Assembly: GCA_964453185.1 (NCBI GenBank) | Contig: CAYVNN010000002.1 | Location: 55,843-119,842, forward strand | Length of the DNA stretch: 64,000 bases | Direction of reading: 5' to 3' | Origin: an uncultured Methanosarcinales archaeon | GTDB taxonomy: Archaea > Nanobdellota > Nanobdellia > Woesearchaeales > DSVV01 | Shown: piece by piece, positions 1,647 to 48,111 of the stretch | How positions within the stretch are numbered: position 1 is the first letter of the stretch | Layout of the letters: every line of letters begins with the position of its first letter | Notes under the pieces: model-generated | Seen by the model: the letters and a program-made list of their open reading frames with translations, nothing else | Told to the model about the DNA's origin: nothing | The model's database searches: none | Made by a program: the position numbers and the translations under genes

Positions 1647-2639
1647 CTACATATTCTTATTTAGAGATTTCAGATAAGAATGTAATTTCTCTTTAACTTT
1701 TATTTTCAACTCTTGACCAATATCAAGAATATCAATCTCATTATCCCAATCAATATCAGGCAAAGTATTAATCTCACTAACTAGATTACGTCCTGCTAAG
1801 TTAGTTTGTTTATCTATCTCTTCTGTATATTTTGAACCAAATTGTTTAATTATTGGAAATTTGCTTACTGAATTAGCTCCAGCTTTAAACAACTCTGAGA
1901 CCCATTCAACCCTATCTGTCCATATTCCTGCCTCAATATCAATCTTTGGAAAAGCTATTCTTGTTGATGCAATCCATTTACAATAATAATCTAATTTAGG
2001 TGGTTCTTTATCTTCAAAATAAGTACCTTTTTGTGGATTTAATGAATAAAAATGAATCTTATCAATATTATGTTTTTCAATAAACTTTTTTAATAATTCA
2101 AAATCTTCAAAAGTTTCTCCTAAACCAATTATGATAGTAATTGCTTTCTTTAATCCAAGTTTTTCAGCAGTTTTAAGCATTTCTTCAAACGGCTTTATTG
2201 GTTTACTTGGACAAACAAAGTCATGTAATTTTGGTTCAACAGTTTCAATAGCTGCAACAACACCTTTGATATAAGGTTTGTATTCAAGAAGTTCATGTTC
2301 TGACAAAGGTCCAACATTAATATAGAACTTATCTCCATATATTATATAGATTAATTCTAACAATTTCTTAAATTCAACTTGAGAATAAGCCTTATGTCCA
2401 CCTGATAAAAAACCAAAGTCCCATTTTAACTTTTTACAAAGAATAGCTTCTGCTAACATACTTTCAGTTGTTCTTCTTGCTAATTTTCCTTTATTATGTT
2501 TACTTTGTACAGACATATAACAATACTTACAATCACCTATTTCACAATACCAACTAAAAAAAATAGCTCTTTCAAAATAAACATCTTTACTAAAGTTCCT
2601 TAGAAATATTTCATCTGCTTTCTGTATGTAGTTGTCCAT
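1647..2639 (-). CDS. radical SAM protein, biotin-synthase-like (BioB/ThiH/HydE/CofG group), with a non-canonical Cx4Cx2C cluster motif
   Basis: The translation contains WYCEIGDCKYCYMS; DCKYC matches the BioB-type motif but the first Cys is spaced one residue further away than usual. FLSGGH resembles a glycine-rich SAM-binding motif. Size 330 aa. Confidence 0.5.
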   Translation of the reverse strand: MDNYIQKADEIFLRNFSKDVYFERAIFFSWYCEIGDCKYCYMSVQSKHNKGKLARRTTESMLAEAILCKKLKWDFGFLSGGHKAYSQVEFKKLLELIYIIYGDKFYINVGPLSEHELLEYKPYIKGVVAAIETVEPKLHDFVCPSKPIKPFEEMLKTAEKLGLKKAITIIIGLGETFEDFELLKKFIEKHNIDKIHFYSLNPQKGTYFEDKEPPKLDYYCKWIASTRIAFPKIDIEAGIWTDRVEWVSELFKAGANSVSKFPIIKQFGSKYTEEIDKQTNLAGRNLVSEINTLPDIDWDNEIDILDIGQELKIKVKEKLHSYLKSLNKNM

Positions 2640-2871
2640 CTGGTCTCCCCCTAACTCTCACTAGTTCATGCTCTGCATTATGATAATTACATCCTGGACA
2701 AACTTGATATTTATGACCAGACATAAATACACCTACAACCTTATTTCCACTATATCCTGGACCGTCCTTAAATTGACTTCTCCTATAAACCCCATCACAC
2801 TCCAAACACTGCAGTCTCGGATCTCTAATGTCCCTAAAAAGCCTTGAAACCTTTATTCCTAGCATAATCAT
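2611..2871 (-). CDS. small double zinc-ribbon protein (hypothetical), immediately upstream of and overlapping the radical SAM gene
   Basis: 86-aa ORF with CLEC...C and CPGC Cys pairs. It overlaps the downstream gene start by 29 nt, so the true start could be internal (MSGHKYQVCPGC). Confidence 0.3.
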   Translation of the reverse strand: MIMLGIKVSRLFRDIRDPRLQCLECDGVYRRSQFKDGPGYSGNKVVGVFMSGHKYQVCPGCNYHNAEHELVRVRGRPDGQLHTESR

Positions 2872-5083: not shown

Positions 5084-5956
5084 TTATTTAAAATAATTCT
5101 TCTTATAATGAACAAAGTAATAAACCAATCCCATAATCACTAAAAGTAATAATACTGCACCAACAACCACTGCAACATTAGATTCTTCTTCAATCTCTGT
5201 TGGAATTGTTTCAGATAAATCTTCTGCAATATCATTTATTGATTTTTCTTCCACTTCCTCTAATTCTTCTTCAGAAGTATCTTCCTCTGGTTCTTCTGGT
5301 TCTTCTTCAAGAATTTCTTCTTCCTCTTCTACATCTTCTGTATCCTCTGTATCCTCTGTACTTTCTTCTGCTTCTTCAACATATTCTCGTAATTCTAAAT
5401 AAACCATTGTACTTGATGATCTTTCAAAATAAACAGATAAATCATTATCTCCATCTTGATCTAAATCAATATATCTTGTTTCCCCTTTCTCAATTGTTAA
5501 TGTCTGTGGATCACTTTCAATTGTTATTGTTGCAATTCGTTCCACAGTATCATAATCATCAACAGTTAATGTATGTGAATAATCATTATACTTAAAACGT
5601 GTATATTGGGTTGGTTTAAGATTTACAGTCTTTGATGTAGATGAAAGTGTAAATAATGTAGATGAACTACCGCCGCCACCTCCACCACTTGATGAAGTTG
5701 TTGTACTAGAATCATCTTCACTACTTGTTGTGCTTGAACTTGAAAAACTAGCAGTAAACTCATAACTAGCAGAAGTTGCACCACCTGAAGCTGATGATGA
5801 TGATGATGTATCTCCTTCATAAGTAGCAGATGACAAATCTCCAGCTACAGTCCCTGAACTAGTTGATTCAGCCTCATAACTATCTGAACTTACATCAGCC
5901 CCAAATACAAAAGGCAATGTAAACAAAATAACTAAAAAAACAATTAATTTTTTCAT
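5084..5956 (-). CDS. secreted acidic Ser/Thr/Gly-rich surface protein with a C-terminal TM anchor
   Basis: N-terminal signal peptide (MKKLIVFLVILFTLPFVFGA), a long S/T/G low-complexity region, an acidic E/D-rich tail and a C-terminal hydrophobic anchor followed by a KKNYFK tail. Confidence 0.5.
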   Translation of the reverse strand: MKKLIVFLVILFTLPFVFGADVSSDSYEAESTSSGTVAGDLSSATYEGDTSSSSSASGGATSASYEFTASFSSSSTTSSEDDSSTTTSSSGGGGGGSSSTLFTLSSTSKTVNLKPTQYTRFKYNDYSHTLTVDDYDTVERIATITIESDPQTLTIEKGETRYIDLDQDGDNDLSVYFERSSSTMVYLELREYVEEAEESTEDTEDTEDVEEEEEILEEEPEEPEEDTSEEELEEVEEKSINDIAEDLSETIPTEIEEESNVAVVVGAVLLLLVIMGLVYYFVHYKKNYFK

Positions 5957-5969: not shown

Positions 5970-7121
5970 TTAATGGAATGCTTTCCAACTAGATCCATCA
6001 CAACCATAAAATGTATTATCAGTCATATTAAAAAAGATAGTACCTGCATCTGTTGGGCCACATGTTGCTAAAGCCACAGGTGATGTTCTTAATGTACCAT
6101 CAGCACTAATATTTCCAGCAACCTCTAACATTACTCCTGGATCATCTGTTCCAATACCAACTCTACCGTCATTAACAATTCTCATTAATTCACCTTCTGT
6201 TGAATTCTGAAAAGAAATATTAGCGGACTCTGACTGAACTGTGTTTGCTACCAATGAATTACCAGATGCAGCAATAGAACCAACAACTTCTAAAGTATAA
6301 AAAGGATTAGTCACTCCAATACCCACTTTTCCTGCTTGCGTTATTCTCATTACCTCTGCAGGCGTTGAATTTATAAATGTAATATTTTGTCCAATAGGAA
6401 AATCAAGATTATTAACAATCAAACTATTAGAAGCTTTAATACTACCAACAACATCTAAAACCTGAGCAGGAGTTGTTGTTCCTATTCCCACATTTCCAGC
6501 ATCTGTTATCCTAATTATTTCATTAGATGTTGAATTATAAAATGAAATAGCACTTGTTGATGAAGGAATCTTTAAAGCACCAGTAGCTACACTAGTAGCA
6601 ACAAGTGTTCCATTAACATCTAGAATACTAGTAGGATTATTTGTTCCTATACCAACCCTATTATTATCATAATCAATATGTAACGTACTATTATCAGAAT
6701 TAAAAGTAAAATTAGCACTTTCAAGATCTCCTGAACCTACATCTCCCAAAGGAGAATAAAATATTCTTCTATCAACATTATCTCCAGTTAAATTTGTAAA
6801 ATTAGCATCTTCATTATTAATATAATAATTTTTATAATAAGCATCACCATAATTCAAACTTAAAGCATTAGAACTATTTTCCCCTAATAAAACATTCCAT
6901 GAACCATTACTAATTGCATTAGTAAAGTTCTCTGCATACTGTAATGTTCCACCAGATGCAGCATCCCATATTTCAACTGTTAAATTTCCTGTACTTAACA
7001 ATGTCCCTGTCGAACTCGTCTTAACACCACTACCACTATCAGACATTACAAATCCACTTGCTGCACTTACACTAAAACTTAACATAACTAGAACCATAAC
7101 ATAAACTAATACTTTTTTCAT
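5970..7121 (-). CDS. secreted repeat protein with phage-tail-fibre-like G-x-VGIGT-x-x-P repeats
   Basis: Signal peptide, then four repeats of the type (M/I)RIT(D/Q)AG(N/K)VGIGTTTPAQVL(D/E)VVGSI and a C-terminal YGCDGSSWKAF. Confidence 0.55.
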   Translation of the reverse strand: MKKVLVYVMVLVMLSFSVSAASGFVMSDSGSGVKTSSTGTLLSTGNLTVEIWDAASGGTLQYAENFTNAISNGSWNVLLGENSSNALSLNYGDAYYKNYYINNEDANFTNLTGDNVDRRIFYSPLGDVGSGDLESANFTFNSDNSTLHIDYDNNRVGIGTNNPTSILDVNGTLVATSVATGALKIPSSTSAISFYNSTSNEIIRITDAGNVGIGTTTPAQVLDVVGSIKASNSLIVNNLDFPIGQNITFINSTPAEVMRITQAGKVGIGVTNPFYTLEVVGSIAASGNSLVANTVQSESANISFQNSTEGELMRIVNDGRVGIGTDDPGVMLEVAGNISADGTLRTSPVALATCGPTDAGTIFFNMTDNTFYGCDGSSWKAFH

Positions 7122-8312: not shown

Positions 8313-11300
8313 TTATGTTGTACTTGGAGGATTCAACAATGCTTCTACTTGAGATTTATTATAATACTCAAATTGATTTCTACTATTAATATGAACTAAA
8401 AACAGATCATCATTAGATGTTGGAACAACAACAAAATCAACATTTTCTTGTGTGGTTAATCCATTTAATTCAATAGCTGAACCATCTTCCACTTTAACAA
8501 CTGTTTGATCATTCAAAACTCTAACTTCAACATCTGTTCCAGCACTATCTTTAACAATATGTGGTTGAGTTAATTCTTCAAATCCAAGAACTGTATGATC
8601 AGTTAAACTTGCATAATCATGACTTGAACATCCACATGATTCAAATGCAACCTTAAACTCAGCTCCATTTCTTTCAGAATGTGCAAAGATATCAACAGCT
8701 GTTCCATTTAAATCTTGTGAAGTTGTATAAACTAAATTGTTTGGATCAAATCCATATCTACCTACAATAGGATCTTGACCAACTAAAAACATTGTTCCAT
8801 TATGATTAACTGCAGCTCTATCTGTTGTTGTTAATCCTGCTAATACTGGTGCAGGTAATGGACCTGGTACTGGATCTGGTGTTGGTGCAACAGGACTTGG
8901 TGCTTCCATTGGTTTTGCAATATAAAGATGCTCTGCTCTATGACCATCAAAGTCATAATTAGGATCATTAACTAATGTCTTCACACCAACCATAAATTCA
9001 TCATCTAATGTATTCTCAAAAACACCAACATGTGCAAACTCTAATTCTCCCTCTTTATCAAACACAAGTTGTGTTGGTGTAGTATCACCATCACTCATAC
9101 CAAATATACCTTCAAAATTAGATAACAATTGATCATCAGTAGCAAGAACAACAGGTGTACCCTCATCTGAAGCAAATCTCCCACCATCTATATAATCCTC
9201 TCCTGGAGTAATATCTAATTCAATATTAACAAAATTCACATCAGCTGGATTAAAATTTCCTGCATTAGCAAAATTATAAACTGAATCTGCTGCTTGATTA
9301 AATTCTGCTTCTGTATCTAATGAAATTAAATTAACAACAGTAGGTTTATTATTTCCAACATCTTGAATAGTATCAAGAATACCTGTTGAACCTAATTCAG
9401 TCAGAGTTCCATATGATAAAACCTCTGATAATGTATAATTTGGAATAGTTAATCCACTAACTGCAGGTGCTGTTGGAAGAGGTGTTCTTCCTGCACATAA
9501 TGCTCTAACAGAGTTTTCAATCTCAGATGCAGAATCATTACCATACCAATGTTGTACTAAATTTCCTTCTTTATTAAACAATAAATTAATTGGTGTATCT
9601 CCACCATTAGCAATACCTGAACTTTCTAATGCTGTCCATGCTTCTGCGTCTGAAAAATCAACAACATCGTATGCTGGATTATATCCTTCATCTTTTAAAT
9701 CTTCAACAACTGAATTAATATAAGGTAAGTCTGCTTCAGGACTTGATCTATTCCCTAATTCTGCTACAACAACATCAAATTCCTTATCAGAATATCTACC
9801 ATATAAGTCATCAGCAACAGCTAATGCTCCATTTGGATTATCTAATGTTGTATCTGTTGGATCATCAACACCAAACATTGTAACTAATAAAGCATTTGTC
9901 TCATCTGTTAATTGAGCATTGATATCATAAACATCTCCACCTAAACCAGTCATTGGAACATTAGATAAATCATTTAATGTCATCTGTGGTACAACAGGAG
10001 GATCTACCGGTCCTGGAACTACTGGGTCAGGTGTCACAGGTTGTGGTCCTGGTTGAACTGGGTCAGGTACAACTGGTTGTGGTCCTGGAACTACTGGTCC
10101 AGGTTGAGTAGGTGTTGTTCCTGGTCCTGGAATAACAATAGGATCTGAAACAGGACGATAAACATTATCATTATAAGGCATCATTGGTGCATCATTACTT
10201 GTATCAATTGTATTAATATTACATGCATTAGTTTGAGGAGTATGTTGTCGCCCAATTAAAGGATGATATTGTTCCTGTCCTTGTCCTCTACATGGACAAT
10301 CATCTGACGGTTGTACTGGATCAGGTTGAACTATTGGATCAGGTGTACTTGGATCAGTAGGAACCACTGGATCTGCACCATGATCTACTCTAAACTTAAA
10401 GTCAACAACAGTATCATCACCAAAACCTAATGCTCTTGAATAACTATTTCCAGAATTAACTGAATCTAAATAATCATTGTCTGATACGGAAACTTGTACT
10501 GTATGAACTTCCTCAGGATTTAAATGTGAAACATCAAATCCATTTGTAACTTCTGCATTTCTTGGAACCCATCCTTCTCTATGGACATGATCTCCATCAA
10601 TATAAAAATCAATATGATCAATTCCACTTCCTGTAAACCAATTTACAATACCAGTAGAATTTTCTTGAACTCTAAAACTTAAATTTAATTCTCCATCTGT
10701 AATAGGATCAGCAAATACTCTTGTTCCACCCTCAACAACTGTTGAATTTGAAACCCATTCTCTTGTTTCCATATGTACTTCATAAAGATTAGGATCTTCT
10801 GTACTCATTTTATCATGAGCAACACCAAATTCATGATCACCAAATCCTGCTGCTCTATTTCCATGAAAAATACATTCACAATTAATATCTAAATCATTTG
10901 AATCTAAAGAATGTGTACTCCAACTATCTACATGTTGAGCTTGTCCACTTCCATCATAAATCCATGCATCCTCGTCGTGAATACCATTTAGTGTAAAATC
11001 ATCTGAAATACTAAATTCACCACCTTCAATAGTAATTGCTCCTGCTTGAACTCCTTTAATTACAACATCAGTAATATTATTATCAAAAACAATTTTTCCT
11101 TCATTGTTCTCAACAACAGTATGTCCATTTTCTGTTGAAACTTCATATCCATTAACAACAACATCATCTAATGTTGCTGCATGTGCAGTTGCCGGTGCAA
11201 ATGCTCCAACTAAACCTGCTACCGGAACAATACCAATTGCAGCAATATCTGAAATCTTTGATAATAATGAACCATTATTTCTAGTTCCTTCATCTGCTGA

Positions 11301-12197
11301 TTTACTCATTTTTGCAGCTGCATATCTTAATCCATAATTAGCTGCTAATGCTCCCCCTACAACTCCTAATGCAAGTGGACCACCAAATGCAGCACTCTTC
11401 ATAGTAATCGCTGCTAATCCTGCTAATCCTGCCCCTAATTGTGTTGCTTCTTGAGAAACTTTATCTTTTAAAACATAACCAGCTAAATCTGCTGCTGGCT
11501 TTGCAACAATCTGACTTCCAACTAATGAAGCTGCAACATAACCTGCTGCTCCTAAAGTCATTGCACCAACTCCTAAATAACTAGCTGCTAATGGCGCAGC
11601 AATTAATGCAGCTGGTGTCAAAGCTGCTCTCTGCATCTTTGTTAATTTAAATCCTCTATCAATATGATCTCTCTCAGCATAACCTAATTCTGCAAAAGCA
11701 TCATGTAATGTTCTTGCCATATCTCCTGATTGAGCTTGATTAACATAACTTGTTAATGTTCTTGTATGTCCTCTTTGCTCTCTAGCTCTCGATAATACTT
11801 GTGTAACATAACCTACTTCTTGATCTGATAATCCTGTTGAAAAGTAAGTTTTAACTGGTGCAGTCATAACATTTGCAATATATTTAGCAACTCTTCCTAA
11901 TCTTGTTGCTGGTTGTGATTCATTTTTAACTAATAAATTTCCTTGACCTTGTTCAAGAACATAATCTAAACCTTGTACTGATAATTTTCCATTTTTCATA
12001 TAGCCTTGAATATTAGCTTGTGTAGTAGCATCTACTGTAGCTAAATTCTCTTGTAAATTAGCGCTTGCTTTAGCTAAATAACTATCAGCATAACCTTTTT
12101 CAGAACCTGTTAACATACATTTTACTCTATCAACTAATGAAACTCTTTCTTGTGAAATTCCTGCATTTGCAGTCATTGTAGTAGCATAATTACTCAT
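8313..12197 (-). CDS. giant (about 1294 aa) membrane-anchored surface protein with a Pro-rich linker and large ectodomain
   Basis: Start at the ATG at 12197, preceded by GGGGG. The first ~190 aa are hydrophilic, followed by 3-4 hydrophobic helices (aa ~200-345). A long extracellular region then contains PVQPGPQPVTPDPVVPGPVDPP linkers. Confidence 0.55.
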   Translation of the reverse strand: MSNYATTMTANAGISQERVSLVDRVKCMLTGSEKGYADSYLAKASANLQENLATVDATTQANIQGYMKNGKLSVQGLDYVLEQGQGNLLVKNESQPATRLGRVAKYIANVMTAPVKTYFSTGLSDQEVGYVTQVLSRAREQRGHTRTLTSYVNQAQSGDMARTLHDAFAELGYAERDHIDRGFKLTKMQRAALTPAALIAAPLAASYLGVGAMTLGAAGYVAASLVGSQIVAKPAADLAGYVLKDKVSQEATQLGAGLAGLAAITMKSAAFGGPLALGVVGGALAANYGLRYAAAKMSKSADEGTRNNGSLLSKISDIAAIGIVPVAGLVGAFAPATAHAATLDDVVVNGYEVSTENGHTVVENNEGKIVFDNNITDVVIKGVQAGAITIEGGEFSISDDFTLNGIHDEDAWIYDGSGQAQHVDSWSTHSLDSNDLDINCECIFHGNRAAGFGDHEFGVAHDKMSTEDPNLYEVHMETREWVSNSTVVEGGTRVFADPITDGELNLSFRVQENSTGIVNWFTGSGIDHIDFYIDGDHVHREGWVPRNAEVTNGFDVSHLNPEEVHTVQVSVSDNDYLDSVNSGNSYSRALGFGDDTVVDFKFRVDHGADPVVPTDPSTPDPIVQPDPVQPSDDCPCRGQGQEQYHPLIGRQHTPQTNACNINTIDTSNDAPMMPYNDNVYRPVSDPIVIPGPGTTPTQPGPVVPGPQPVVPDPVQPGPQPVTPDPVVPGPVDPPVVPQMTLNDLSNVPMTGLGGDVYDINAQLTDETNALLVTMFGVDDPTDTTLDNPNGALAVADDLYGRYSDKEFDVVVAELGNRSSPEADLPYINSVVEDLKDEGYNPAYDVVDFSDAEAWTALESSGIANGGDTPINLLFNKEGNLVQHWYGNDSASEIENSVRALCAGRTPLPTAPAVSGLTIPNYTLSEVLSYGTLTELGSTGILDTIQDVGNNKPTVVNLISLDTEAEFNQAADSVYNFANAGNFNPADVNFVNIELDITPGEDYIDGGRFASDEGTPVVLATDDQLLSNFEGIFGMSDGDTTPTQLVFDKEGELEFAHVGVFENTLDDEFMVGVKTLVNDPNYDFDGHRAEHLYIAKPMEAPSPVAPTPDPVPGPLPAPVLAGLTTTDRAAVNHNGTMFLVGQDPIVGRYGFDPNNLVYTTSQDLNGTAVDIFAHSERNGAEFKVAFESCGCSSHDYASLTDHTVLGFEELTQPHIVKDSAGTDVEVRVLNDQTVVKVEDGSAIELNGLTTQENVDFVVVPTSNDDLFLVHINSRNQFEYYNKSQVEALLNPPSTT

Positions 12198-12335
12198 TTT
12201 ATATCCCCCACACCCCTTTAACACCACTTAGGAGTGATGATTTCTTTATAAAGGTTTTGATTTTATATATAATAAGACAGCATTTTCCCTAAAAATCCAA
12301 TAATTTTATAAAATACCAACTAATCTAAATTAGCT

Positions 12336-14909
12336 ATGAAACATAGTATTTGGACAGAAAAATATAGACCTTCAACATTTGAAGAGATAAAAGGTCAAAA
12401 AGACGCAATTTCTAAGGTTAAAGCATTTGTTGAGCAAAAAAACATGCCGCACTTAATGTTTGCAGGTCCAGCTGGCGTTGGTAAAAGTACAACTGCTTTA
12501 GTTATAGCAAAACAATTATTTGGCAAAGAATGGAGAAATAATTTCCTTGAACTTAATGCATCTGACGAGAGAGGAATTGATGTAATCAGAGTAAAAGTTA
12601 AAGATTTTGCAAGGACAAGAGCCATAGGTGATGTACCATTTAAAATCATCTTCCTTGACGAGTGTTTAGATTATAATTCTAAAATTATTGTACAATCAAA
12701 CTATGGCATTGAAGAAGTTTCTATTGGTAATTTCGTTGAAAATTTTGATTTTCAAAATTATAAAATCATGTCTGTAGATGATAGTGGAGACATGATTTAT
12801 TCAAAAATTACCAAAACTATGAAGCTTCCTCATAATGCTAGTCATGGATACTACAAAATTAAAGTACATGATAAAGAAATAATTGTAACAGGAAATCATG
12901 AATTTTTATCAATTAATGGGTGGAAAAGAGCTGATGAGTTGAAGATAAAAGATCTAGTTCTATGCCCACAAAAAATTCCAATTATTAACAGAATCGAATC
13001 TAATAAACCATTGATATACAATTTAATAGGTTTACCACAGGAGATAAGAAAAAAAGAGAGATATTTACCACAGGAGATAAGAAAAAAAGAGAGATATCTT
13101 CCAAGATCACCTGAAAAACAAATTATTGAATTATTAGGAAAATATCCGGAAGGTTTAACTAGAGAAGAAATAACATTAAAAAGTAAAGTAAGTACTTCAA
13201 AAATAACTTCTATTTTAAGTGATAAAAACAATGTTTATTACATTCCACTAAGAAAACATAAGATCATTAAGAAAAATAAAGACAGATATATTTTAGGAGA
13301 TAATACAGGCAATTCCCTAGACAAGCTTTATAAAATTAAAAGGACACAAAATAATACAAATCAAGAATTCATCTTAACTCAACTTAAATCAAAAGAATTA
13401 TTTCCTATAAAAAGAGAAAATGCAATAATCTGTGCTAGGATTTTAGGGCACCTATTTAGTGATGGTTGTTTAACCCTTAAAAGTAAGCAACTATTTTTCT
13501 CTGGAAAAGAAGAGGATTTAAAAACTATAAAGAAAGATCTTAATAAATTAGGCTATTATTCATTAGGTAATATTAGACATTCAAAATGGAAAAAAGGTGA
13601 ATGTTGGTCTTTTGGAGCTTATAAACTAGAGTTATTAAGCTTATTTTACTCATTAGGTGCCCCAGTAGGAAAAAAGACAGACAATGTAGTAAGAATCCCT
13701 GAATGGATAATGGACAGTGACTTAACTATACAATCAGCATTCTTATCTGCCCTCTTTGGTGGAGATGGTTATGAACCAAAGTTCCAAGGGAGAACAGTCA
13801 AACAAATATTAATAGGAATCTCTAAGCGAGAAGATTTACAAAATAACCTAATTGAGTATCTGAAACAAATACAACAGTTACTTTCCAGATTTAATATAAC
13901 CTCAAGATATAGAATTTGTCCAGGTTATAAATCCACACGGAAAGACAATACAAATACTATTGAAGGCAGAATCTGGATTACTAATTCAATGGAAAATATT
14001 TATAAATTTCTAACTAAGATTGGATATTCATATTGCCAATATAAAGAAAAAACTACAAAAGATGTTATAAAATATTTGGATTGGAAAAAGAGTTTAGGAA
14101 AATTTATTTACACATTTAAACCAGTCCCTTATTTCTATGAATGGAGAGAAAATCTTATGCTTGGTGATTCTTCCTATCATTATGTAACATCTATTGAAAA
14201 AATTAAAGATCCAGATTTTGTATACTGTGTATCTACAGAATCTGGAAGATTTATAGCAAATAATATTGTAGTACATAATTGTGATGCTCTAACAAAAGAA
14301 GCACAACAAGCTCTGAGAAGAACAATGGAAAACTATACATTAACCACAAGATTTGTTTTATCATGTAATTATTCTTCAAAAATCATTGATCCAATCCAAA
14401 GTAGATGTGCAATGTTTAGATTTAAACGTCTACAACAAGATGAAATCATTGATTTAATCAATCATATTGCTACAGCAGAACAATTAAATATCGACGAGGA
14501 TGCAAAAAAAGCATTATACACAGTTTCTGAGGGAGATTGTAGAAAAGCAGAGAATATATTACAATGTTGTACTGCAATTAACAAACACATAACAAAAGAC
14601 CTAATATTTAGTATGGCATCTGTTGCAACACCAACAGAAATCAGAGAAATGCTAGAATTAGCTATTAATAATAAGTTTGTCGACGCTAGAAACAAATTAT
14701 TAGATACAATGTTAAAGTATGGTTTAAGTGGAATTGATATAATCAAACAAATAAACAGAGAAATCTGGAAACTAGATATCGACGACAAAATGAAAGTACA
14801 ACTCATCGACAAATGCGGAGAAACTGAATTCAGAATGACTGAAGGCAGTGATGAGTATTTACAACTTGAAGCATTATTAGCTAATTTTACTCTGTGTAGT
14901 TTGAAATAA
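12336..14909 (+). CDS. rfcS: replication factor C small subunit interrupted by an intein
   Basis: N-terminal EKYRPSTFEEIKGQ...FAGPAGVGKST Walker A, and IIFLDE|C...VVHN|CDALT Walker B split by the intein. C-terminal SRCAMFRFKRL sensor region. Confidence 0.9.
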   Translation: MKHSIWTEKYRPSTFEEIKGQKDAISKVKAFVEQKNMPHLMFAGPAGVGKSTTALVIAKQLFGKEWRNNFLELNASDERGIDVIRVKVKDFARTRAIGDVPFKIIFLDECLDYNSKIIVQSNYGIEEVSIGNFVENFDFQNYKIMSVDDSGDMIYSKITKTMKLPHNASHGYYKIKVHDKEIIVTGNHEFLSINGWKRADELKIKDLVLCPQKIPIINRIESNKPLIYNLIGLPQEIRKKERYLPQEIRKKERYLPRSPEKQIIELLGKYPEGLTREEITLKSKVSTSKITSILSDKNNVYYIPLRKHKIIKKNKDRYILGDNTGNSLDKLYKIKRTQNNTNQEFILTQLKSKELFPIKRENAIICARILGHLFSDGCLTLKSKQLFFSGKEEDLKTIKKDLNKLGYYSLGNIRHSKWKKGECWSFGAYKLELLSLFYSLGAPVGKKTDNVVRIPEWIMDSDLTIQSAFLSALFGGDGYEPKFQGRTVKQILIGISKREDLQNNLIEYLKQIQQLLSRFNITSRYRICPGYKSTRKDNTNTIEGRIWITNSMENIYKFLTKIGYSYCQYKEKTTKDVIKYLDWKKSLGKFIYTFKPVPYFYEWRENLMLGDSSYHYVTSIEKIKDPDFVYCVSTESGRFIANNIVVHNCDALTKEAQQALRRTMENYTLTTRFVLSCNYSSKIIDPIQSRCAMFRFKRLQQDEIIDLINHIATAEQLNIDEDAKKALYTVSEGDCRKAENILQCCTAINKHITKDLIFSMASVATPTEIREMLELAINNKFVDARNKLLDTMLKYGLSGIDIIKQINREIWKLDIDDKMKVQLIDKCGETEFRMTEGSDEYLQLEALLANFTLCSLK
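12663..14279 (+). other. intein (539 aa) with a LAGLIDADG homing endonuclease domain inside rfcS
   Basis: Begins with Cys at the DE|C junction and ends with HN, followed by Cys. Two LAGLIDADG-like motifs: ILGHLFSDGCL and LSALFGGDGY. Confidence 0.8.
13035..13100 (+). repeat. perfect tandem duplication (2 x 33 nt) inside the intein, encoding PQEIRKKERYL twice
   Basis: ccacaggagataagaaaaaaagagagatattta followed by ccacaggagataagaaaaaaagagagatatctt. Confidence 0.9.
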
Positions 14910-20394: not shown

Positions 20395-23300
20395 TTACGA
20401 AGCCATTGAAGCAAACTGACCCAATGGTACATACTCAAATTGTACCTTTGTGTAATCAGGTAAAACAGTTCCTTCAACAGTATCTCTTTTTCTGACGTAA
20501 AATCCTTGTGAATCTTTTTCATCACACTGTCCCATTACATCATCATCTTCCCATTCAATTGTACAAAATTCTTTAAAATTACCCATATAATCTTTATAAT
20601 AAAGAAATATTTCATCATCTTCATACTTGGTCCAGATAAATCCAGTCCAAACTTCAACCTCATCTGCTCCTTCAATTAAATAATCTGAATTAATAACTGA
20701 ATATGCTAATATTTCATAATTAAAACTCATTAATTTCCCATCCTCTACCACAACATAATAACTAAATGCAGGATTATTATCAATATAAATCCATCTTTCA
20801 GAATATTCTTCTGATGTTGGAATTGTTCCTTCATAAACTGTTTCTGTTTGATTATTCGTGTAAATAAAAATCTTTAATTTCTTTGAATCATCAATACTAA
20901 TTATTAATTTAGTTCCTGATGTGTCTAAATCAATTGTTTCAGAAAAATCTTTTGTTTCACCATTAATTGTAAAACTTCCTTGTACTAAAAAGTTGTCCTC
21001 ATTTGTTTCTGATTTTAATTCTCCACTTTGCACAAGATTAAGCTCTTGAACTTTTTTATAATATGTTTCAACTAACTGAACATATAATCTAACCTGTTCA
21101 TAGTCGTCGTCATACTCACACCAATACCTTTTATCCCCTATACAATCTTGACTATCACAAAATACACCAACATATTCTCCATCTCTAATTCCACAAACAC
21201 CACCATAATATGTTGCTAACAAGTATTCTCTATTTAATTCAGGATCTTCTGAATCAAAAGGAATATTTTCATTATTTAATAAATCATACATTCTCCTTAC
21301 ACCAAACCTAATGTTTGTATCTGGATCAAATAAATCATAATCAACTATTCCCAATTCTGCAGCAATAACTGCAGCATCCTCTTCTGTTATCTGCATTAAT
21401 CCATTTGTTTCACCAAGAGGAGAAGATAATCCCACTGTTGTTGGATCATTCTTAGAACCTGCTGCAATCATTGCAATAACTAATTGTGGATCCATACCAT
21501 ACCTATCAGACCACTCTGAGATACTATTTGGACTTGAAGCATAATAAATAGTATAAATATCACTAACTAATTCATCTGGTTTTCCAGTATAAGATTCTTC
21601 TGATTTTGAATATGATGTTTCCGCATAACCTGCTGCAGTATCTGACTCAATCACCTTAACAGATGTGTCTTCAACAATTTTATAATCATACCTTGCTTTA
21701 ACAAAGAAATACTTTGTAGATATTGGTGTATTTCCTAATAGCTTATGTTCATCAACAATATCTAATCTACAATTGTATGAAACAAAATCTTCAATATCTT
21801 TGTAATGATTGGTGTTTCTTGAAGTGTCTAAATAATATGCATTATATCCATCTAACTCTTCTTGACATTTTAATAATAAGCATGCTCTCATTGTATCATC
21901 TGTAACTGCACCTTCATCTTCACATGCTCTATAGAAAGCAGTTTCATATTCTACATTACTACTTACACATCTATCCTCTGTATATTCTTTAAAATTAGTA
22001 TCTGAACAAGTATCAAGATCAAGTTCCATTGAATCTGGAATTATAACAACAATCTCTTTTATCTCTTCAATCATTCCATCCCAGTTTGTGTCAGCATCTA
22101 ATGTAATTCCTAATCTTGGTTTAACCTGATATGTTGAATCAATTCCTGTTAATGCACTATCTGGACCTATACCTAATCTAATTGGACCATTTGAATATCT
22201 TGCAACAGGATCTTTATCTTCCACTTGATACTGATCTAATAAATCAACACCATCTTTTAATGCAGAATTTAATCTATCTCTACTTGTAAAATATCTTTTA
22301 ACATAACCAATTGTTTCAAAATTAAACTTTGATTCAAATGTAACAGCATGTGAACCAGGACTTAATTTATTTTGAGGAATAGTACAATCAATTTCTTCCT
22401 GCTGCATATCATAAACTTCCATTGTTGCTGGATAAACTTCACCATAAACTTTACTTGTACCTTTTCCAGCATAACATGTTGTATTAATTTGCACCATATC
22501 ATCCAATGTTCTTGCCATTAATATTGCAAACACTGTAACTCTTTCATCTTCATAGAACTTTTCCTTTGAAGCCATAACATCTTCAATATAAACACCAAGC
22601 TGTTCTTCTTCATTCTCCTCAACCTGTCCAACATAATAGGTCGATGTGAGTTGTTTCTTTCTTATTTCCCAAATATCTCCAAACCTTGAAAATGCACCCC
22701 ATGTTGATGTAAATATTTGAGAACCACCTTCAACAAACTTATCCTTTAATACTAGAAATGCATCCCATCTTTCATAATCAGCTGTATCTAATTCTAAATC
22801 AGTAAAACCATACATTTGTCCCATACCATATGAAAGTATGATAAAGACCCACCACATAATAATTAAGAATCTTGATAACCTAATATACCATAACTTTGCT
22901 TCACTTCCTCTATAAACTGCATAGTAAATCCATGTTAACATAATAAATCCATTTGCTACAAACAAACGAATAAAATCAATAGATGCAATCATACTACTTG
23001 ATGCAACCATCCATGGAACAATAACCTCTATACAAAAACATACCAACATAATACGATACGTTTTTCCATTTCTCTCACTAGGATGAAAAATAAATAAGAT
23101 AGGCACAAGAATCATCCAAAATAAATTAAGAAAAATCCTATTTTTAATAGACAACCTTGATCCAATAACAACTGCATGATAAATACAAGCAAAAACAAAG
23201 AACCAAAATATACTAGAATTAGTTCTTCTTTCATCTTCATCTGCTCCACCTTTGAACAGATTAATGATTCCTTTACCACCATAATAAAAAGGAATAGATA

Positions 23301-23739
23301 AACCACGTGTAACAGCATTATGTGTTAAGAATTTACCAAAGCCTTTTGCTCTTTGCCATAATAAACTAGTTAATTGCTTTTTTCTATCTAACTCATCCAT
23401 TCCTTTAGCATGTCTTAATGCTTGAATCTTTGCAGTTAAATCAGAAAGATTAGCTTTATTTTCATTATGAGAATCTTTAAAATCTTTCCAAGGTTGTTGA
23501 AAAGTAGGCTTTACTGCATGTTCTTTCACATGAGGTAAGCCCAAATCTTTAGCCTTAGTCCAATTAGAATGAGCCATATCTACGGCTTCTGTTTTAGCAG
23601 CACCCCATGCCTTACCTGCTCCTGACTTAGTCTTACTCCAAGCAGCACTACTTACAGCTTTAGCTCCTGACTTAGTCTTACTCCAGGCAGCACTACCTAC
23701 AGCTTTAGCTCCTGCCTTAAATCCAGCCCATGATACCAT
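20395..23739 (-). CDS. giant (about 1114 aa) multi-TM protein with a large ectodomain containing an SLT-like (lytic transglycosylase) segment
   Basis: Start at the ATG at 23739 (MVSWAGFKAG), preceded by GAGGT. The longer ORF merely translates repeat copy C. Tandem AKAV(G/S)SAAWSKTKSG repeats are followed by about 6 TM helices. The ectodomain contains IAMIAAGSKNDPTTVGLSSPLGETNGLMQI, which resembles the SLT catalytic region but has Gly where the catalytic Glu is expected. Confidence 0.5.
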   Translation of the reverse strand: MVSWAGFKAGAKAVGSAAWSKTKSGAKAVSSAAWSKTKSGAGKAWGAAKTEAVDMAHSNWTKAKDLGLPHVKEHAVKPTFQQPWKDFKDSHNENKANLSDLTAKIQALRHAKGMDELDRKKQLTSLLWQRAKGFGKFLTHNAVTRGLSIPFYYGGKGIINLFKGGADEDERRTNSSIFWFFVFACIYHAVVIGSRLSIKNRIFLNLFWMILVPILFIFHPSERNGKTYRIMLVCFCIEVIVPWMVASSSMIASIDFIRLFVANGFIMLTWIYYAVYRGSEAKLWYIRLSRFLIIMWWVFIILSYGMGQMYGFTDLELDTADYERWDAFLVLKDKFVEGGSQIFTSTWGAFSRFGDIWEIRKKQLTSTYYVGQVEENEEEQLGVYIEDVMASKEKFYEDERVTVFAILMARTLDDMVQINTTCYAGKGTSKVYGEVYPATMEVYDMQQEEIDCTIPQNKLSPGSHAVTFESKFNFETIGYVKRYFTSRDRLNSALKDGVDLLDQYQVEDKDPVARYSNGPIRLGIGPDSALTGIDSTYQVKPRLGITLDADTNWDGMIEEIKEIVVIIPDSMELDLDTCSDTNFKEYTEDRCVSSNVEYETAFYRACEDEGAVTDDTMRACLLLKCQEELDGYNAYYLDTSRNTNHYKDIEDFVSYNCRLDIVDEHKLLGNTPISTKYFFVKARYDYKIVEDTSVKVIESDTAAGYAETSYSKSEESYTGKPDELVSDIYTIYYASSPNSISEWSDRYGMDPQLVIAMIAAGSKNDPTTVGLSSPLGETNGLMQITEEDAAVIAAELGIVDYDLFDPDTNIRFGVRRMYDLLNNENIPFDSEDPELNREYLLATYYGGVCGIRDGEYVGVFCDSQDCIGDKRYWCEYDDDYEQVRLYVQLVETYYKKVQELNLVQSGELKSETNEDNFLVQGSFTINGETKDFSETIDLDTSGTKLIISIDDSKKLKIFIYTNNQTETVYEGTIPTSEEYSERWIYIDNNPAFSYYVVVEDGKLMSFNYEILAYSVINSDYLIEGADEVEVWTGFIWTKYEDDEIFLYYKDYMGNFKEFCTIEWEDDDVMGQCDEKDSQGFYVRKRDTVEGTVLPDYTKVQFEYVPLGQFASMAS

Positions 23740-23766
23740 TATTAACCTCTTTTTTACAGCTATAAT

Positions 23767-23899
23767 AATGCCACCGCCTTGACTCACTATCTACTATATA
23801 GCGAAGGCGCTAAAAGTCTTTATACGTACAGCAGTGACTTAGTAGCATGCAATGCTACTACCTTCCCTCTACACATCGTGCCAGAGTCGCCGTGGCATT
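23767..23899. repeat. structured inverted-repeat element, copy C
   Basis: AATGCCACCGCCTTGACTCACTAT ... TGCCAGAGTCGCCGTGGCATT. Inner stem GACTC/GAGTC. The internal module TATAGCGAAGGCGCTAAAAGTCTTTATACGTACAG is shared with copy G. Confidence 0.75.
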
Positions 23900-33531: not shown

Positions 33532-35520
33532 ATGAACTATGCTATTTTTATACCAATATTCATTGTATTGGGATTGTTATTTGCAGGTTATCTAACTATG
33601 CAGATAAATAGAGAAAAAAGAGGAAATAAGAAAATGATCGAAATTTCCGATGCTATTAAAGAAGGTGCAATGGCTTTCTTAAATAGAGAATATAAAGCTT
33701 TAATTGTTTATGCAATTATTGTAACAATTATTCTTGGAATATTCTTAAATATTCCAACAGCAATTGCATTTGTATGCGGTGCATTCTTATCTGGTTTAGC
33801 TGGATATATTGGAATGAGAATTGCAACATCTGCAAATGTAAGAACAGCAAATGCTGCTCAAACAGGATTAGGAAATGCATTAAAGATTGCATTTTCATCT
33901 GGAGCAGTTATGGGTCTATGTGTAGTAAGCTTAGGTTTACTAGGAATCTTCTTATTATATGCACAATTTCAAGACGTATCAATTTTATTTGGATTTAGTT
34001 TTGGTGCATCATCAATTGCATTGTTCGCAAGAGTTGGAGGTGGAATTTTTACAAAAGCAGCAGATGTTGGTGCTGACTTAGTAGGAAAAGTTGAAGCAGG
34101 TATTCCTGAGGACGATCCAAGAAACCCAGCAGTTATCGCTGATAACGTGGGAGATAATGTTGGAGATGTAGCAGGAATGGGCGCAGACTTGTTTGAAAGT
34201 TATGTTGGAAGTATTATTGCTGCTATGGCAATAGGAGTTGTACTTTATGGAATGGATGGATTATTACTACCATTATTAATTGCAGCATTTGGTATTGGTG
34301 CTTCTATCATTGGTAACTTCTTTGTTAAAGCTAAAGAAGATGGATCAAATATTCAAAGCGCATTAAAATACGGATTATATGTTGCAAGTGCACTTGCAAT
34401 CTTGTGTATGTATTGGTTAACAAGAACATTATTACCACTAGCAGACAGTTTTAATGTTTTCTTAGCACTTGTAGCTGGACTTATTGCAGGTATTTTAATT
34501 GGCTTATTGACAGAGTATTATACATCTGACAAATATGCACCAGTTAAAAAAATCGCAGAAAGTTCAAAAACAGGAAGTGCAACAAACATAATTCAAGGAT
34601 TAGCAGTTGGTTATGAAAGTACAGCATTACCTATTTTAGTAATTGCAATTGCAATCTATATTGCATATAATTTTGCAGGGCTTTACGGAATTGCATTAAG
34701 TGCAGTTGGTATGTTGTCTACTTTAGGAATTTCATTAGCAATTGATGCTTATGGTCCAGTAGCAGACAACGCAGGCGGTATTTCAGAAATGGCTGGACTT
34801 GGTGCACATGTTAGAAAAAGAACAGATATGTTAGATTCAGCAGGTAATACAACAGCAGCAATTGGAAAAGGTTTTGCAATTGGTTCAGCTGCATTAACCG
34901 CATTAGCATTGTTCTCAGCATTTACACAGACAGCTAACCTGTCATCAATTGACATAATGAATCCAATGGTTATAATTGGTTTATTACTAGGTGGAATGTT
35001 ACCATTCTTATTTTCATCAATGAGCATGCAAGCAGTAGGAAGAGCAGCATTCTCAATGATTGAAGAAGTAAGAAGACAATTCAAAAACATCAAAGGATTA
35101 ATGGAAGGTAAAGCAAAAGCAGATTACAAAAAATGTGTTGATATTTCAACAGCAGCTGCATTAAAAGAAATGATAATGCCAGGAGTATTAGCAATCGCAG
35201 CACCATTAATTGTTGGATTTGTTTTAGGACCAATGGGACTAGGAGGAATGTTGGCTGGATCACTAGTTTGTGGAGTAGTATTTGCAATTTCAATGGCTAA
35301 TTCAGGTGGAGCATGGGACAATGCAAAGAAATACATTGAAGCAGGACATTATGGTGGAAAGGGAAGTGATGCACATAAAGCAGCGGTTGTCGGCGACACA
35401 GTAGGTGACCCAAAAAAAGATACAAGTTCTCCGTCAATCAACATATTAATCAAGTTGATGACAATAATATCTTTAGTCTTCTTACCACTAATCCTAAAGT
35501 ACGGAGGACTTTTGGTATAA
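33532..35520 (+). CDS. hppA: membrane-bound proton/sodium-translocating pyrophosphatase
   Basis: [40 protein letters not shown] and the C-terminal [14 protein letters not shown] are diagnostic V-PPase motifs. 662 aa, about 16 TM helices. Confidence 0.9.
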
Positions 35521-36573
35521 AATTTCTTTTTTTATTTTCTTTCTTAATTCTTGCCACAAAGGTTCTACTTGATTCCATAATTTATCTTTATTCTCTAAAA
35601 TAAATTGCATTTTCCTAATTTTTTCACTATGTTTACTTAATGGCAACATTTTTTTAATTAAATTGTGGGTATCTTTTTTTCTATTAAGTGTAACATTATA
35701 GATATTAAAATTAAATTGTCCAGAAGGAGATCTGTCACCGTTCTTATTTTCTAAACGAAATAATGGATGAAATCTTTTTGATTTTAATTTATCTTTAATC
35801 TGTTCCAATATCCTTTTATCTCCTGTCCTTAATCTAAAAACATATCTAAAATGCTTATCATGACTTTTATTTATATTCCAATTAGATTCACAATCTGCAT
35901 ATGCTGTTAAAAATTGGTAAAATAATTCATTATTTTCTAAAATCCAAGAAGGGATTTTATTAGGTTTTTCGACGAGAAAATCAAATGACTCATGTAAATC
36001 AACATAAATAAACCATTCATCATTTCTATCCTTATGTCGAGAATAATATTTCCTAATTTCTCCATATTTCTTAAATGAATCATTCAATAGATCAATTTGA
36101 GCATTATGTGTCGTACTAGTCTGTATTCTAATAGATTTTCTTGCCCGTTTTGCATAAAAATCTCCTGCTCTTAATCCCAATAAAAATGCTTTTTTGTTAA
36201 GATCACCACAAAATGGTTTTTTAAATTTTTTAGTTAATGCCTGAGAAACAGTTTTTCTTTTTATTCCATAATTTTCTAACTTTTTTCTAACAGTTCTACC
36301 AAATTTAATACCAAATTTCTTTGCAATCTCTCTTGAACTTAATCTTTTATTCCAATATAGATCTTCCAAAACAGTTTTTGGAATATGAATTTTCTTTCTA
36401 TAAGCAGGTCTTCTCTTAATATCAAACTTACATAACCAATAGTGTATGTTTGAACCATTACAACCAAATTTCTTTCCAATCTGATTTAATGATAGTTTTT
36501 TGTCTATGTAAAGCTCTTTCAATTTTTCTTTAGTAAATTTTAATCCTTTTTTCATTTTAATCATTTCACTCAA
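35494..36573 (-). CDS. free-standing homing-endonuclease-like protein: two NUMOD1-type HTH repeats + LAGLIDADG domain
   Basis: Repeats [20 protein letters not shown] and [20 protein letters not shown] (NUMOD1-like). LAGLIDADG-like [14 protein letters not shown] and [13 protein letters not shown]. Its 3' end overlaps the 3' end of hppA by 27 nt on the opposite strand. Confidence 0.55.
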
Positions 36574-36710
36574 AGAACATAGATGATTAAAATAATAGAA
36601 AAATACAAGGATTAATAAAACTTATGATTAGAAAGATACATCCGGACAAACTACCAATAAAATCAGAATATTTCCGGAATTTACTTTAAACCCTTATTTT
36701 TTATTTCTTT

Positions 36711-36756
36711 TTATTTACCACCAAAAAGTAATGTCAAAACAAAACATTTATAAATG
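36711..36756 (+). promoter_or_regulatory. conserved upstream element + BRE/TATA (TTATTTACCACCAAAAAGTAATGTCAAAACAAAACATTTATAAATG) for the SLT gene
   Basis: About 88% identical to 45361..45406, upstream of the cyclase gene. TTTATAA TATA box at 36747-36754, roughly 40 nt before the ATG. Confidence 0.5.
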
Positions 36757-36791
36757 AAATTCTATTACCTTACTCAATCGAGGGACAATAT

Positions 36792-38159
36792 ATGAACAGA
36801 AGAACATTATTAGGATTATTAGGAGGAGCTGCATTAAGCTTAGCTGTACCAAGAATGGGCCTAGGTTCTGATCCACAAGATTTCACAATCAATTATGGAA
36901 CATTTGGTTTACATGACAGACAAACAGCTTTCTCATTATGTGATATGATTCAAGCAGAAGGTTCTGATTTTGATGATATAAAAGTTATTGAATGGGAACA
37001 AGGAAGTGAAAAAAGATACTCTGTCGCAATAGATGTAACTGGAACATTTACAGATGTTAGAGACAGAACAAATAATGACGAAGAATCATTAGCACAATTA
37101 ATTGACATGCACAATCCAGAAGGACATGACTTAAGTTTTTTACCTAGTTCTAGATATGATGGAAGAGACGTATACAAAGATGGAAGAGAAATAGTTAGTG
37201 ATTTACAACCAGTACCAACAAGACCACCAACAGGAAGAGTTCTTTACACAGATTTTAGAGATCCAGAATTCGAAAGACAAGTAGAACAAAGATTAACAAA
37301 CATTAGACCAGGTGGATCAAGACATGAAAAAATTACAAAAGGTATCAAAAGAGGATGGAAATATAAAGCATTAATCAGAGATACTGTTATTGCAAAAGGA
37401 CTTGATCCAGAATATGCTGATTTATTTTTCGCATTAATGATTCAAGAATCACTAGGAAATACAAGAGCAAGATCAAGAGCAGGTGCTGCAGGATTATTTC
37501 AAATCATGCCTGGCACAGGAAAAAAGGATCTTGGAATGACTATGAACCAATTCGTAGATTTAAGATATTCAATCAGAACATCAATAGAAAAAGGAATTCA
37601 ATATTTAGAAAAACCATGCCTTACACAAGCACAAGGAGATATAAGAATCGCTCTTGCTGGATATAATGGTGGCCCATATGGACTTGGCGATAAAATAAAA
37701 GATTTTAGAAGAAGAGGAAAATCAATATCATACAATAGCATAATGGCTGGAAGAAATAGTGAAAATAGTGGATACGCACCAGGAATTTATGCAATTCAAG
37801 CATATGTTACAGAACTAAGTTTACCTGATGAAAATGAAGTTGACTTCAGAAAAACTTGGGAAATAGCTACTATAACTCCAGGAAGTAGAGGATTAAAAAT
37901 GAGACTACCAGATGGAACAGAAGTTAATTTTACAGACAGAGCAGGAACAACAAATCTAGACAGATTAGCACAATCATACAATGCTCATGTCAAAAATGAA
38001 ACAGGTTTTGACATGAATACATCATATTTTAATGGAACAATTGGAAGAGAATTTAAAGACATGAATGCCCATGTTAAAAAAGATGGCACATTAGTTTCAG
38101 GAGTACCATATGTAATTTGGGTTCCTAAACCAGATGCTATTCAACAATTAACTAGATAA
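36792..38159 (+). CDS. Tat-secreted lytic transglycosylase (SLT domain) protein
   Basis: Tat-like signal MNRRTLLGLLGGAALSLAVP. ALMIQESLGNTRARSRAGAAGLFQIMPGTG is the SLT catalytic ES...GLxQ signature. The catalytic domain also carries GYNGGPYGL. Confidence 0.75.
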   Translation: MNRRTLLGLLGGAALSLAVPRMGLGSDPQDFTINYGTFGLHDRQTAFSLCDMIQAEGSDFDDIKVIEWEQGSEKRYSVAIDVTGTFTDVRDRTNNDEESLAQLIDMHNPEGHDLSFLPSSRYDGRDVYKDGREIVSDLQPVPTRPPTGRVLYTDFRDPEFERQVEQRLTNIRPGGSRHEKITKGIKRGWKYKALIRDTVIAKGLDPEYADLFFALMIQESLGNTRARSRAGAAGLFQIMPGTGKKDLGMTMNQFVDLRYSIRTSIEKGIQYLEKPCLTQAQGDIRIALAGYNGGPYGLGDKIKDFRRRGKSISYNSIMAGRNSENSGYAPGIYAIQAYVTELSLPDENEVDFRKTWEIATITPGSRGLKMRLPDGTEVNFTDRAGTTNLDRLAQSYNAHVKNETGFDMNTSYFNGTIGREFKDMNAHVKKDGTLVSGVPYVIWVPKPDAIQQLTR

Positions 38160-47786: not shown

Positions 47787-48111
47787 ATTGTAGGGAAGTA
47801 CTTAACTATCGGTGTAAACTGAGGAAAGTCCGTCCACCGTGAAAGACCAGTCTTGGAAGGGACATGGAGAAATTCATGGCAACCACTCAGAAACGAAACC
47901 ACTTGTACTGGGAATGATAGAGTGAAGCAAATGGCGACATTTGTTAGTATCCTCTTGACTATCTTTACAAGAAAGGATGAAACGGTGAGCCCTGGTTGGT
48001 GCAAGGCAGTAACTTTATGTTACATCAGTCCGCTAAGTTAAATGTTAAGGGGTCTGTTTGCATTCAAGGTGCATAGACTCAACAGAAGACGGCTTACCTC
48101 TTCTCTACAAT
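47787..48111 (+). ncRNA. rnpB: RNase P RNA (archaeal type A-like)
   Basis: GAGGAAAGTCCG (P4 5' strand / CR-I) near the 5' end and CAACAGAAGACGGCTTACC (CR-V / P4 3' strand) near the 3' end. P1 pairing of ATTGTAGGGAAG (47787-47798) with CTTCTCTACAAT (48100-48111). Length about 325 nt. Confidence 0.85.

Follow-up and report, generated by a model that had tools for sequence, protein, structure and literature searches.

The 64,000-nucleotide (nt) stretch of DNA analyzed here, referred to below as the window, comes from an uncultured archaeon assigned by GTDB to the Woesearchaeales (assembly GCA_964453185.1, contig CAYVNN010000002.1, positions 55,843 to 119,842 of the forward strand) and contains a gene that lies tail to tail with hppA, the gene for a membrane pyrophosphatase. 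The protein that it encodes has two N-terminal helix-turn-helix (HTH) units followed by a LAGLIDADG core, and the gene quite probably encodes a free-standing homing endonuclease and is spread by intronless homing, with the 3' end of hppA as its place of insertion. The gene occupies the same place on hppA in many archaea, is absent from a matching place in others, and in one relative has been exchanged as a cassette together with the end of hppA.

A gene docked at the 3' end of hppA

The preliminary description of this DNA reported an open reading frame (ORF) of 359 amino acids (aa) at 35494-36573, and a mechanical ORF call does give this frame on the minus strand when it is read from a TTG codon. 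Because the homologs all open with MKKGLKF and the public gene call (P0001, 100% identical to the window protein) has 353 aa, the likely true start is the ATG at 36555, so that the gene would extend over 35494..36555 (minus strand, with a TAG stop codon at 35494-35496) and encode 353 aa. Its host gene, hppA, is at 33532..35520 (plus strand) and covers positions 1-645 of the 645 of the PF03030 profile with no interruption (E=7.6e-285). The two ORFs overlap over the 27 nt at 35494..35520, which is nine codons of each if the stop codons are counted, as had been stated.

The overlap with hppA is not incidental but represents a fixed, lineage-spanning docking site. A scan of genomic context that used one genome per GTDB species returned 40 loci. 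In 28 of these (L003-L030, in DPANN archaea) the identity of the family member to the window protein is 42% or higher, and hppA is directly adjacent in all of them but one, which is cut by the contig end; in the convergent loci the 3' ends of the two genes overlap in every case (25 of 25, by 4-133 nt). The hppA genes linked to the element do not form one clade among hppA genes generally, those of L023/L024/L028, L029, and L011 falling elsewhere, and hppA clades with a mutual identity of only about 48% have the docking position in common. The other genes beside the window element, namely ackA, pta, the SLT-domain gene, and the gene for a membrane protein, recur only in its closest relative, L003. 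An apparently shortened hppA beside the element in L013 was traced to a run of N at ~11380-11480 of the “complete” 833-kb sequence CP070662.1, and this locus is unusable.

An exhaustive profile search showed that the family is large: 476 cluster representatives are found at a threshold of E<=1e-30, and the number rises to 2,820 at E<=1e-10. Its distant members (30-43% identity) are not near hppA, but each adjoins another conserved gene: in L032, L035, L036, and L038 the member is immediately upstream of pheT and overlaps its start in three of the four, in L033, L034, L039, and L040 (several of them in Hadarchaeota) it is next to radical-SAM genes, and in L031 it is convergent with the gene for a class V fructose-1,6-bisphosphatase (FBPase).

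Presence of the endonuclease gene at hppA is optional. All five Woesearchaeota/Nanoarchaeota loci in which hppA is 66-69% identical to that of the window are without it, as is one locus from a bacterium of the candidate phyla radiation (CPR), and three further Woesearchaeota/Nanoarchaeota loci, chosen later, bring the total for these archaea to eight; neither tblastn nor the hidden Markov model of the family detected remnants of the gene in element-free hppA loci. It had been proposed to check whether the hppA loci of relatives lack the gene, and close relatives do lack it, as a selfish element predicts. Of the 120 nearest hppA proteins, only four could be linked with a partner gene, P0121 (from the window) and P0122 (from L003) directly and P0146 and P0172 through contigs of equal length. 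A metagenome scan anchored on the C terminus of hppA found the gene in none of 61 judgeable loci, but this says little about patchiness within the lineage because the contigs mostly have a GC content of 0.4-0.69 and are probably not from DPANN archaea. Two small convergent ORFs over the end of hppA in L125 were considered as a decayed copy and ruled out, since they have no similarity to the family.

One element-free locus, L129, can be compared directly with alleles that carry the element. Its hppA is 87% identical in amino acid sequence to that of L004, and the rtcB gene upstream is 89% identical. The DNA of L129 can be aligned with that of L004, L018, and L005 across the 3' end of hppA, the alignment breaks at about the stop codon, and it resumes 125-140 nt past the hppA stop in L129 and 1145-1220 nt past it in the other three loci. 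Because the resulting offset of ~1082 nt matches the length of the gene, 1068 nt, L129 is read as an empty site, and a clean one, with conserved flanks on both sides. The ~130 nt that follow the hppA stop in L129 contain hairpins and T-runs and resemble a terminator; in element-bearing alleles the gene occupies that place. The downstream anchor of the comparison is at 5085-5293 (plus strand) in L129, ~6906-7120 (minus) in L018, ~9670-9820 (minus) in L004, and ~9740-9900 (minus) in L005, and it resembles a small RNA gene, with a BRE/TATA-like (B recognition element/TATA box) sequence, CGAAAnnTTTATATA, followed by a segment of about 95 nt, parts of which are complementary to each other (GAAACAGC...GTTGTTTCAGC; CAGATCCCCCTGAAGA), and by a T-run. 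The anchor was found only in these four loci, with none in the window, and matches no Rfam family.

Two element-free alleles also carry other genes around hppA. In L129 a 297-aa LAGLIDADG_3 ORF is located between rtcB and hppA (1875-2768, minus strand); it was considered as a member of the present family and ruled out (E=0.008). In the same locus rtcB is called in pieces (394 + 70 aa), whereas in L131, which has no such ORF, rtcB has 467 aa and abuts hppA directly; the L129 ORF could be what is left of an rtcB intein, or it could be another free-standing element, on the opposite side of hppA. The hppA of L131 is 85% identical to that of the element-bearing L004 and L018, and an IS200/IS605-type Y1 transposase gene follows it directly (5168-5614, plus strand).

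Evidence of movement comes from L018. Trees with bootstrap support conflict within one shallow clade: hppA groups L018 with L004 (100%), whereas the element groups it with L005 (100%). In a sliding-window comparison L018 is L004-like over most of hppA and again past the element, and L005-like in the terminal part of hppA and throughout the element. When two breakpoints are fitted, the best partition has one of them 161 nt before the hppA stop and the other about 100 nt upstream of the element's start codon (ATG); the ratio of informative sites that unite L018 with L005 to those that unite it with L004 is 293:84 within this tract, as compared with 168:294 elsewhere (Fisher p=4e-34), and the observed chi-square was reached in 0 of 100 permutations. 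The element ORF is 82% identical between L018 and L005 but 67% between L018 and L004, and also 67% between L004 and L005, whereas the body of hppA is 78% identical between L018 and L004 and 71.5% between L018 and L005; at synonymous sites, L005 and L018 have diverged by 0.78 in the element and by 1.44 in hppA. An assembly chimera was considered and rejected, since the loci were obtained in three separate studies and the copies of the tract are not the same but 82-86% identical. In L018 the final ~160 nt of hppA, together with the whole gene, came from another lineage, and the right-hand breakpoint is the point at which the empty allele regains homology. The tract looks like a co-conversion tract of homing, and by analogy the corresponding segment of the window, the last ~160 nt of hppA (35360..35520, plus strand), is a putative co-conversion tract that probably travels with the element and contains the cleavage site.

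Other loci point in the same direction as L018 but less cleanly. Identity between the hppA genes of L016 and L021 is 0.81-0.92 over most of the gene but falls to 0.58-0.77 in the last ~480 nt, which points to a second localized divergence or recombination hotspot, and distance outliers (L024 relative to L006, L020, and L004; L023 relative to L028) hint at further exchanges between hppA clades.

Architecture, catalytic residues and selection

Residue numbers in the following refer to the 359-aa version of the protein. A protein search with the window protein gave 201 matches, the best 120 of which all have E values below 1e-103 and are mostly 50-69% identical to it; public annotation of family members is mostly “hypothetical protein,” with one “transposase” and one “LAGLIDADG family homing endonuclease.” The window protein by itself matches no LAGLIDADG (PF14528, PF00961, PF03161) or NUMOD1 profile at E<=1, giving only weak HTH matches, and it has no sequence match in the PDB and nothing specific in an NCBIfam search. 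Among 39 close homologs, PF14528 is matched by 22 (best E=7.6e-8) and HTH_28 by 24, and in their alignment G133, R135, G137, and D138 of one motif and Y225, D227, and E229 of the other are invariant. An AlphaFold2 model generated from this 39-sequence alignment is confident (predicted local distance difference test score, 86.8) and resembles the structures of PI-PfuI, I-DmoI, and I-SceI. It consists, in order, of two three-helix units, a duplicated LAGLIDADG fold in which both halves are alpha-beta-beta-alpha-beta-beta-alpha (residues 125-310), and C-terminal helices; the LAGLIDADG helices are modeled at 125-136 and 215-229, with a beta strand after each. Conserved motifs and modeled fold together identify the window protein as a LAGLIDADG enzyme of the single-chain, double-motif type, with its predicted nuclease core encoded at 35644..36201 (minus strand, as are the features that follow). 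Motif 1 (residues 130-139) is at 36157..36186 and motif 2 (residues 221-230) at 35884..35913, where the preliminary description had placed them, and D138 and E229 are the predicted metal-binding acids. That description had named, as the outcome that would tell against it, profile searches in which the C-terminal half was not LAGLIDADG-like; the profile matches of the homologs and the structural resemblance came out for LAGLIDADG.

The N-terminal repeats had been described as two NUMOD1-type HTH repeats. Two three-helix HTH units are indeed present in the model, the first (residues 15-49) encoded at 36427..36531 and matched by HTH_28 and by PHROG 7545 (E=1.8e-15), the second (residues 66-101) encoded at 36271..36378 and also seen in a profile scan, but their assignment to NUMOD1 was not supported: PF07453 is not matched at E<=10 by the isolated N-terminal region or by either repeat, and it is not among the 25 families listed of the 37 matched in the scan of the 39 homologs. 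The repeats score as HTH_28 (25.9 bits, with a cut-off of 25) and Sigma70_r4. Because they match phage families annotated as HNH endonucleases (PHROG 7545, as above, and PHROG 8446, E=1.5e-13, the latter spanning both repeats), these profile comparisons identify them as a nuclease-associated HTH module rather than the NUMOD1 defined by Pfam. Some close family members, of about 400 aa, have three HTH repeats rather than two, and five proteins of 685-821 aa (P0268, P0275, P0314, P0330, and P0384) give 8-11 separate matches to the HTH-repeat part of the profile and look like long arrays of the same unit. At the other end of the protein is a C-terminal helical extension (35530..35643) with a conserved S313-x-H315-x-x-K318 motif.

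A census of catalytic residues was conducted with the 150 best family representatives, of which 139 could be scored at each motif and 136 span both motifs. The acid of motif 1 is Asp in 139 of 139, that of motif 2 is Glu in 129 and Asp in 10, and every representative spanning both motifs has a D/E or D/D pair (136 of 136); H315 is invariant in the same census. The ratio of nonsynonymous to synonymous substitution rates (dN/dS) is 0.14-0.15 for the element, as compared with 0.07-0.16 for hppA, indicating that the endonuclease gene is under purifying selection. As far as can be judged from these residues, a catalytically dead scaffold similar to WhiA is unlikely, because the catalytic acids and H315 are retained across the family; it should be noted that catalytic retention excludes solely a catalytically dead form of domestication.

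Proposed mechanism, candidate target site and alternative explanations

In the intronless homing described for phage enzymes, an optional gene located between conserved genes cuts one of them where the gene is absent and is copied in during repair of the break (PMC6083498). A corresponding sequence of events at hppA would begin with cleavage of an element-free allele in or near its 3' end, the double-strand break being made by the LAGLIDADG core with metal bound by D138 and E229, and the two N-terminal HTH units probably extending DNA recognition. Repair templated by an element-bearing allele would then copy in a cassette of ~1.1 kb, comprising the gene and about 100 nt upstream of it, together with the adjacent ~160 nt of hppA. 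Because of the geometry of the tract in L018, the cut would be near the hppA 3' end, within the last ~160 nt of the gene or at the junction, and element-bearing alleles would be expected to be immune to their own nuclease.

A specific target was sought in the DNA encoding the near-invariant hppA motif GDTVGDPFKDTSGPS(I/L)NILIKLM, which in the window is at 35392-35460 (plus strand). In linked hppA alleles the GDPFKDTSGPS motif frequently has unusual substitutions, with the adjacent invariant Asp and Lys residues kept, and motif variants in linked alleles make it a weak candidate; it failed a prospective test and is kept as a lead only. Scans of variability over the whole hppA protein gave z=1.9-2.4 for the candidate, with other regions equal. 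A fourth allele with a non-canonical motif, in addition to the three considered below, was on a contig that ended too early for the partner test and later proved to be an empty site.

Several observations weigh against homing at hppA as set out above. Both cleavage and the target site are inferred. GDPFKDTSGPS is the top 10-residue window for excess variability among the linked alleles of the main clade, yet its z is 2.4 and residues 498-507 are nearly equal to it; no long stretch of DNA separates linked from unlinked hppA alleles, and the partner-proximal C-terminal quarter of hppA has no overall excess of variability in linked alleles. The three judgeable hppA alleles with non-canonical motifs are all without the element and without remnants of it, although these could be cases in which the element was lost and the resistant allele kept. 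In L006, L008, and L017 the gene is arranged in tandem with hppA, at a distance of 38-168 nt past it, and simple homing does not account for this orientation. The level of conservation of the protein equals that of housekeeping proteins, and decayed copies were not encountered, which is unusual for the classic cycle of invasion, decay, and loss. The empty site and the mosaic are seen in relatives, whereas L003, the nearest relative of the window, also has the element, in a syntenic region. Lastly, the element tree is resolved only in shallow clades, so that transfer between distant hppA clades is tentative.

The preliminary description offered three origins for the gene, a selfish homing endonuclease gene, a domesticated one, or the remnant of an intron or intein that once interrupted a neighboring gene, and the first of these fits best. 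Domestication would make the protein a LAGLIDADG-HTH factor, WhiA-like, or HO-like if it is active, that acts locally in the regulation or processing of hppA and, elsewhere, of pheT, radical-SAM, and FBPase genes. We consider this improbable and it is disfavored because the gene is optional: most close relatives of the window hppA, including the eight Woesearchaeota/Nanoarchaeota loci, lack it, and hppA does not need it. A regulator of the WhiA type is difficult to reconcile with catalytic acids that are kept throughout the 139 scored representatives, a convergent 3' overlap is an atypical arrangement for a host regulator, a dedicated local regulator of pheT in a few genomes is implausible, and neither the cassette-shaped indel nor the mosaic would be expected of one. 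The remnant hypothesis has very little chance of being correct. No Hint or splicing domain is found in the window protein or among the families listed for its close homologs, the gene is on the strand opposite to hppA, which matches its profile from end to end, and the absence of an intein or intron context noted earlier is thus borne out. All loci examined have the family member as a stand-alone ORF, the family is distinguished by an HTH-repeat architecture of its own and includes the 476 representatives already mentioned, and the empty sites have an intact hppA and a normal terminator region.

A further explanation is that the protein is a functional nuclease but a passive passenger, moved by homologous recombination or by transfer of hppA, with its target in foreign DNA or at another chromosomal site. 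That hppA relatives with comparable identity are found in CPR bacteria and in Firmicutes suggests that hppA is prone to transfer, no target site near hppA could be deduced, and the orientation of the gene differs in 3 of 28 loci, all of which would be compatible with this explanation. It is nevertheless regarded as unlikely. The breakpoints in L018 are just inside hppA and just beyond the gene and match the boundary of the empty site, as if the element defines the tract, and the same docking position is used on hppA clades as divergent as those noted above. For a function against foreign DNA, no defense-system family of PADLOC was matched by the window protein at E<=0.01 and no family member was found in viral contigs.

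For homing at hppA a wider significance can be proposed, although here the chances appear evenly balanced: that this is the first recognized intronless homing in Archaea and that the 476 representatives at E<=1e-30 belong to a large, undescribed HTH-LAGLIDADG family, the clades of which are each specialized on the end of one housekeeping gene (hppA, pheT, radical-SAM, or FBPase), persist under purifying selection, and drive allele replacement in adjacent essential genes. In the literature searched, no paper connects LAGLIDADG proteins to hppA or to these archaeal lineages, and we know of no description of free-standing homing endonucleases, or of intronless homing, for LAGLIDADG enzymes in archaeal chromosomes. 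If the proposal is correct, selfish nucleases shape core genes of energy metabolism and translation in DPANN and other archaea by localized gene conversion, the family could help to spread hppA variants among DPANN archaea, and this would matter for phylogenies built from those core genes and for the understanding of gene flow in little-known organisms. It would also mean that docking on the stop codon of a conserved gene allows a homing endonuclease to survive with no intron or intein as its refuge, and genome engineering would gain, in this family, a large natural collection of meganucleases that carry modular HTH extensions. The annotation of the window is improved to a free-standing LAGLIDADG homing endonuclease, hppA-associated, of 353 aa.

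Genomic setting and related systems

The window is archaeal, since it contains an archaeal RNase P RNA (RF00373, 127.6 bits) at 47790-48108 (plus strand), its sole Rfam match, and metagenome-assembled genomes of Woesearchaeota and Nanoarchaeota supply the best homologs of the endonuclease gene and hppA alike. The GC content is 0.25-0.27 in the endonuclease gene (35500-36500), as compared with 0.36-0.38 in hppA and a mean of 0.30 for the window. Upstream of the endonuclease gene, the intergenic region at 36556..36791 (minus strand) is AT-rich, is shared divergently with an SLT-domain gene that begins at 36792, and is presumed to be the archaeal promoter region of the endonuclease gene. This divergent neighbor (36792-38159, plus strand) and a second window gene (20398-23790, minus strand) encode proteins with SLT lytic transglycosylase domains of bacterial type, which are plausibly tied to a cell-surface or episymbiotic lifestyle. 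An intein-borne LAGLIDADG domain had also been noted, and the gene for the replication factor C (RFC) small subunit at 12324-14906 (plus strand) is indeed split by an intein (Intein_splicing, E=9.1e-20; LAGLIDADG_3, E=2.4e-9). The window therefore carries two unrelated LAGLIDADG elements, the RFC intein and the hppA-docked gene.

Free-standing homing endonucleases and intronless homing are textbook subjects for T-even phages. The window element resembles SegF, SegG, MobE, and F-CphI of T-even phages and cyanophages in being an optional, stand-alone gene wedged beside a conserved gene, in its presence/absence polymorphism at a fixed site with co-transfer of the adjacent host sequence, and in having an accessory DNA-binding module of the HTH type. 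It differs in that the phage Seg, Mob, and F-CphI enzymes are of the GIY-YIG, HNH, or Endo VII types, whereas the window enzyme is a LAGLIDADG protein encoded in an archaeal chromosome by a gene that overlaps, tail to tail, the stop codon of its host gene, and in that cleavage of the neighboring gene is, for the window element, only inferred. Among LAGLIDADG enzymes, the window protein has the build of I-DmoI or PI-PfuI, extended by an HTH module. However, its identity to I-DmoI, I-Tsp061I, and I-Vdi141I, which are encoded in rRNA introns, and to the intein PI-PfuI is only 14-19%, its gene lies outside any intron or intein, and it has two N-terminal HTH repeats (three or more in some relatives) and a C-terminal extension with an invariant His that these enzymes do not have.

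Three other systems are informative for comparison. The HO endonuclease of yeast (F-SceII) is a free-standing LAGLIDADG enzyme with an added DNA-binding domain and intein relics that has been domesticated for mating-type switching; the window gene, in contrast, has no intein relics and is optional instead of fixed. Bacterial WhiA (DUF199) is a LAGLIDADG-HTH transcription factor that is universal in its lineage and has its HTH at the C terminus, and its catalytic acids, as Kaiser and colleagues are said to have found in 2009, have been lost, whereas the window family has N-terminal HTH units and invariant acids, and its gene is patchily distributed. A parallel to the hybrid hppA of L018 is offered by fungal mitochondria, in which mobile, free-standing endonuclease ORFs stand at the 3' ends of genes; for atp6 of Allomyces, Paquin and colleagues reportedly described, in 1994, such an ORF, of the GIY-YIG type and fused to the gene in frame. 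That case shares with the present one docking at the 3' end of the gene for a membrane enzyme and replacement of its C-terminal segment, giving a hybrid host gene, but it is organellar rather than archaeal, and the window element is a LAGLIDADG gene on the strand opposite to that of its host.

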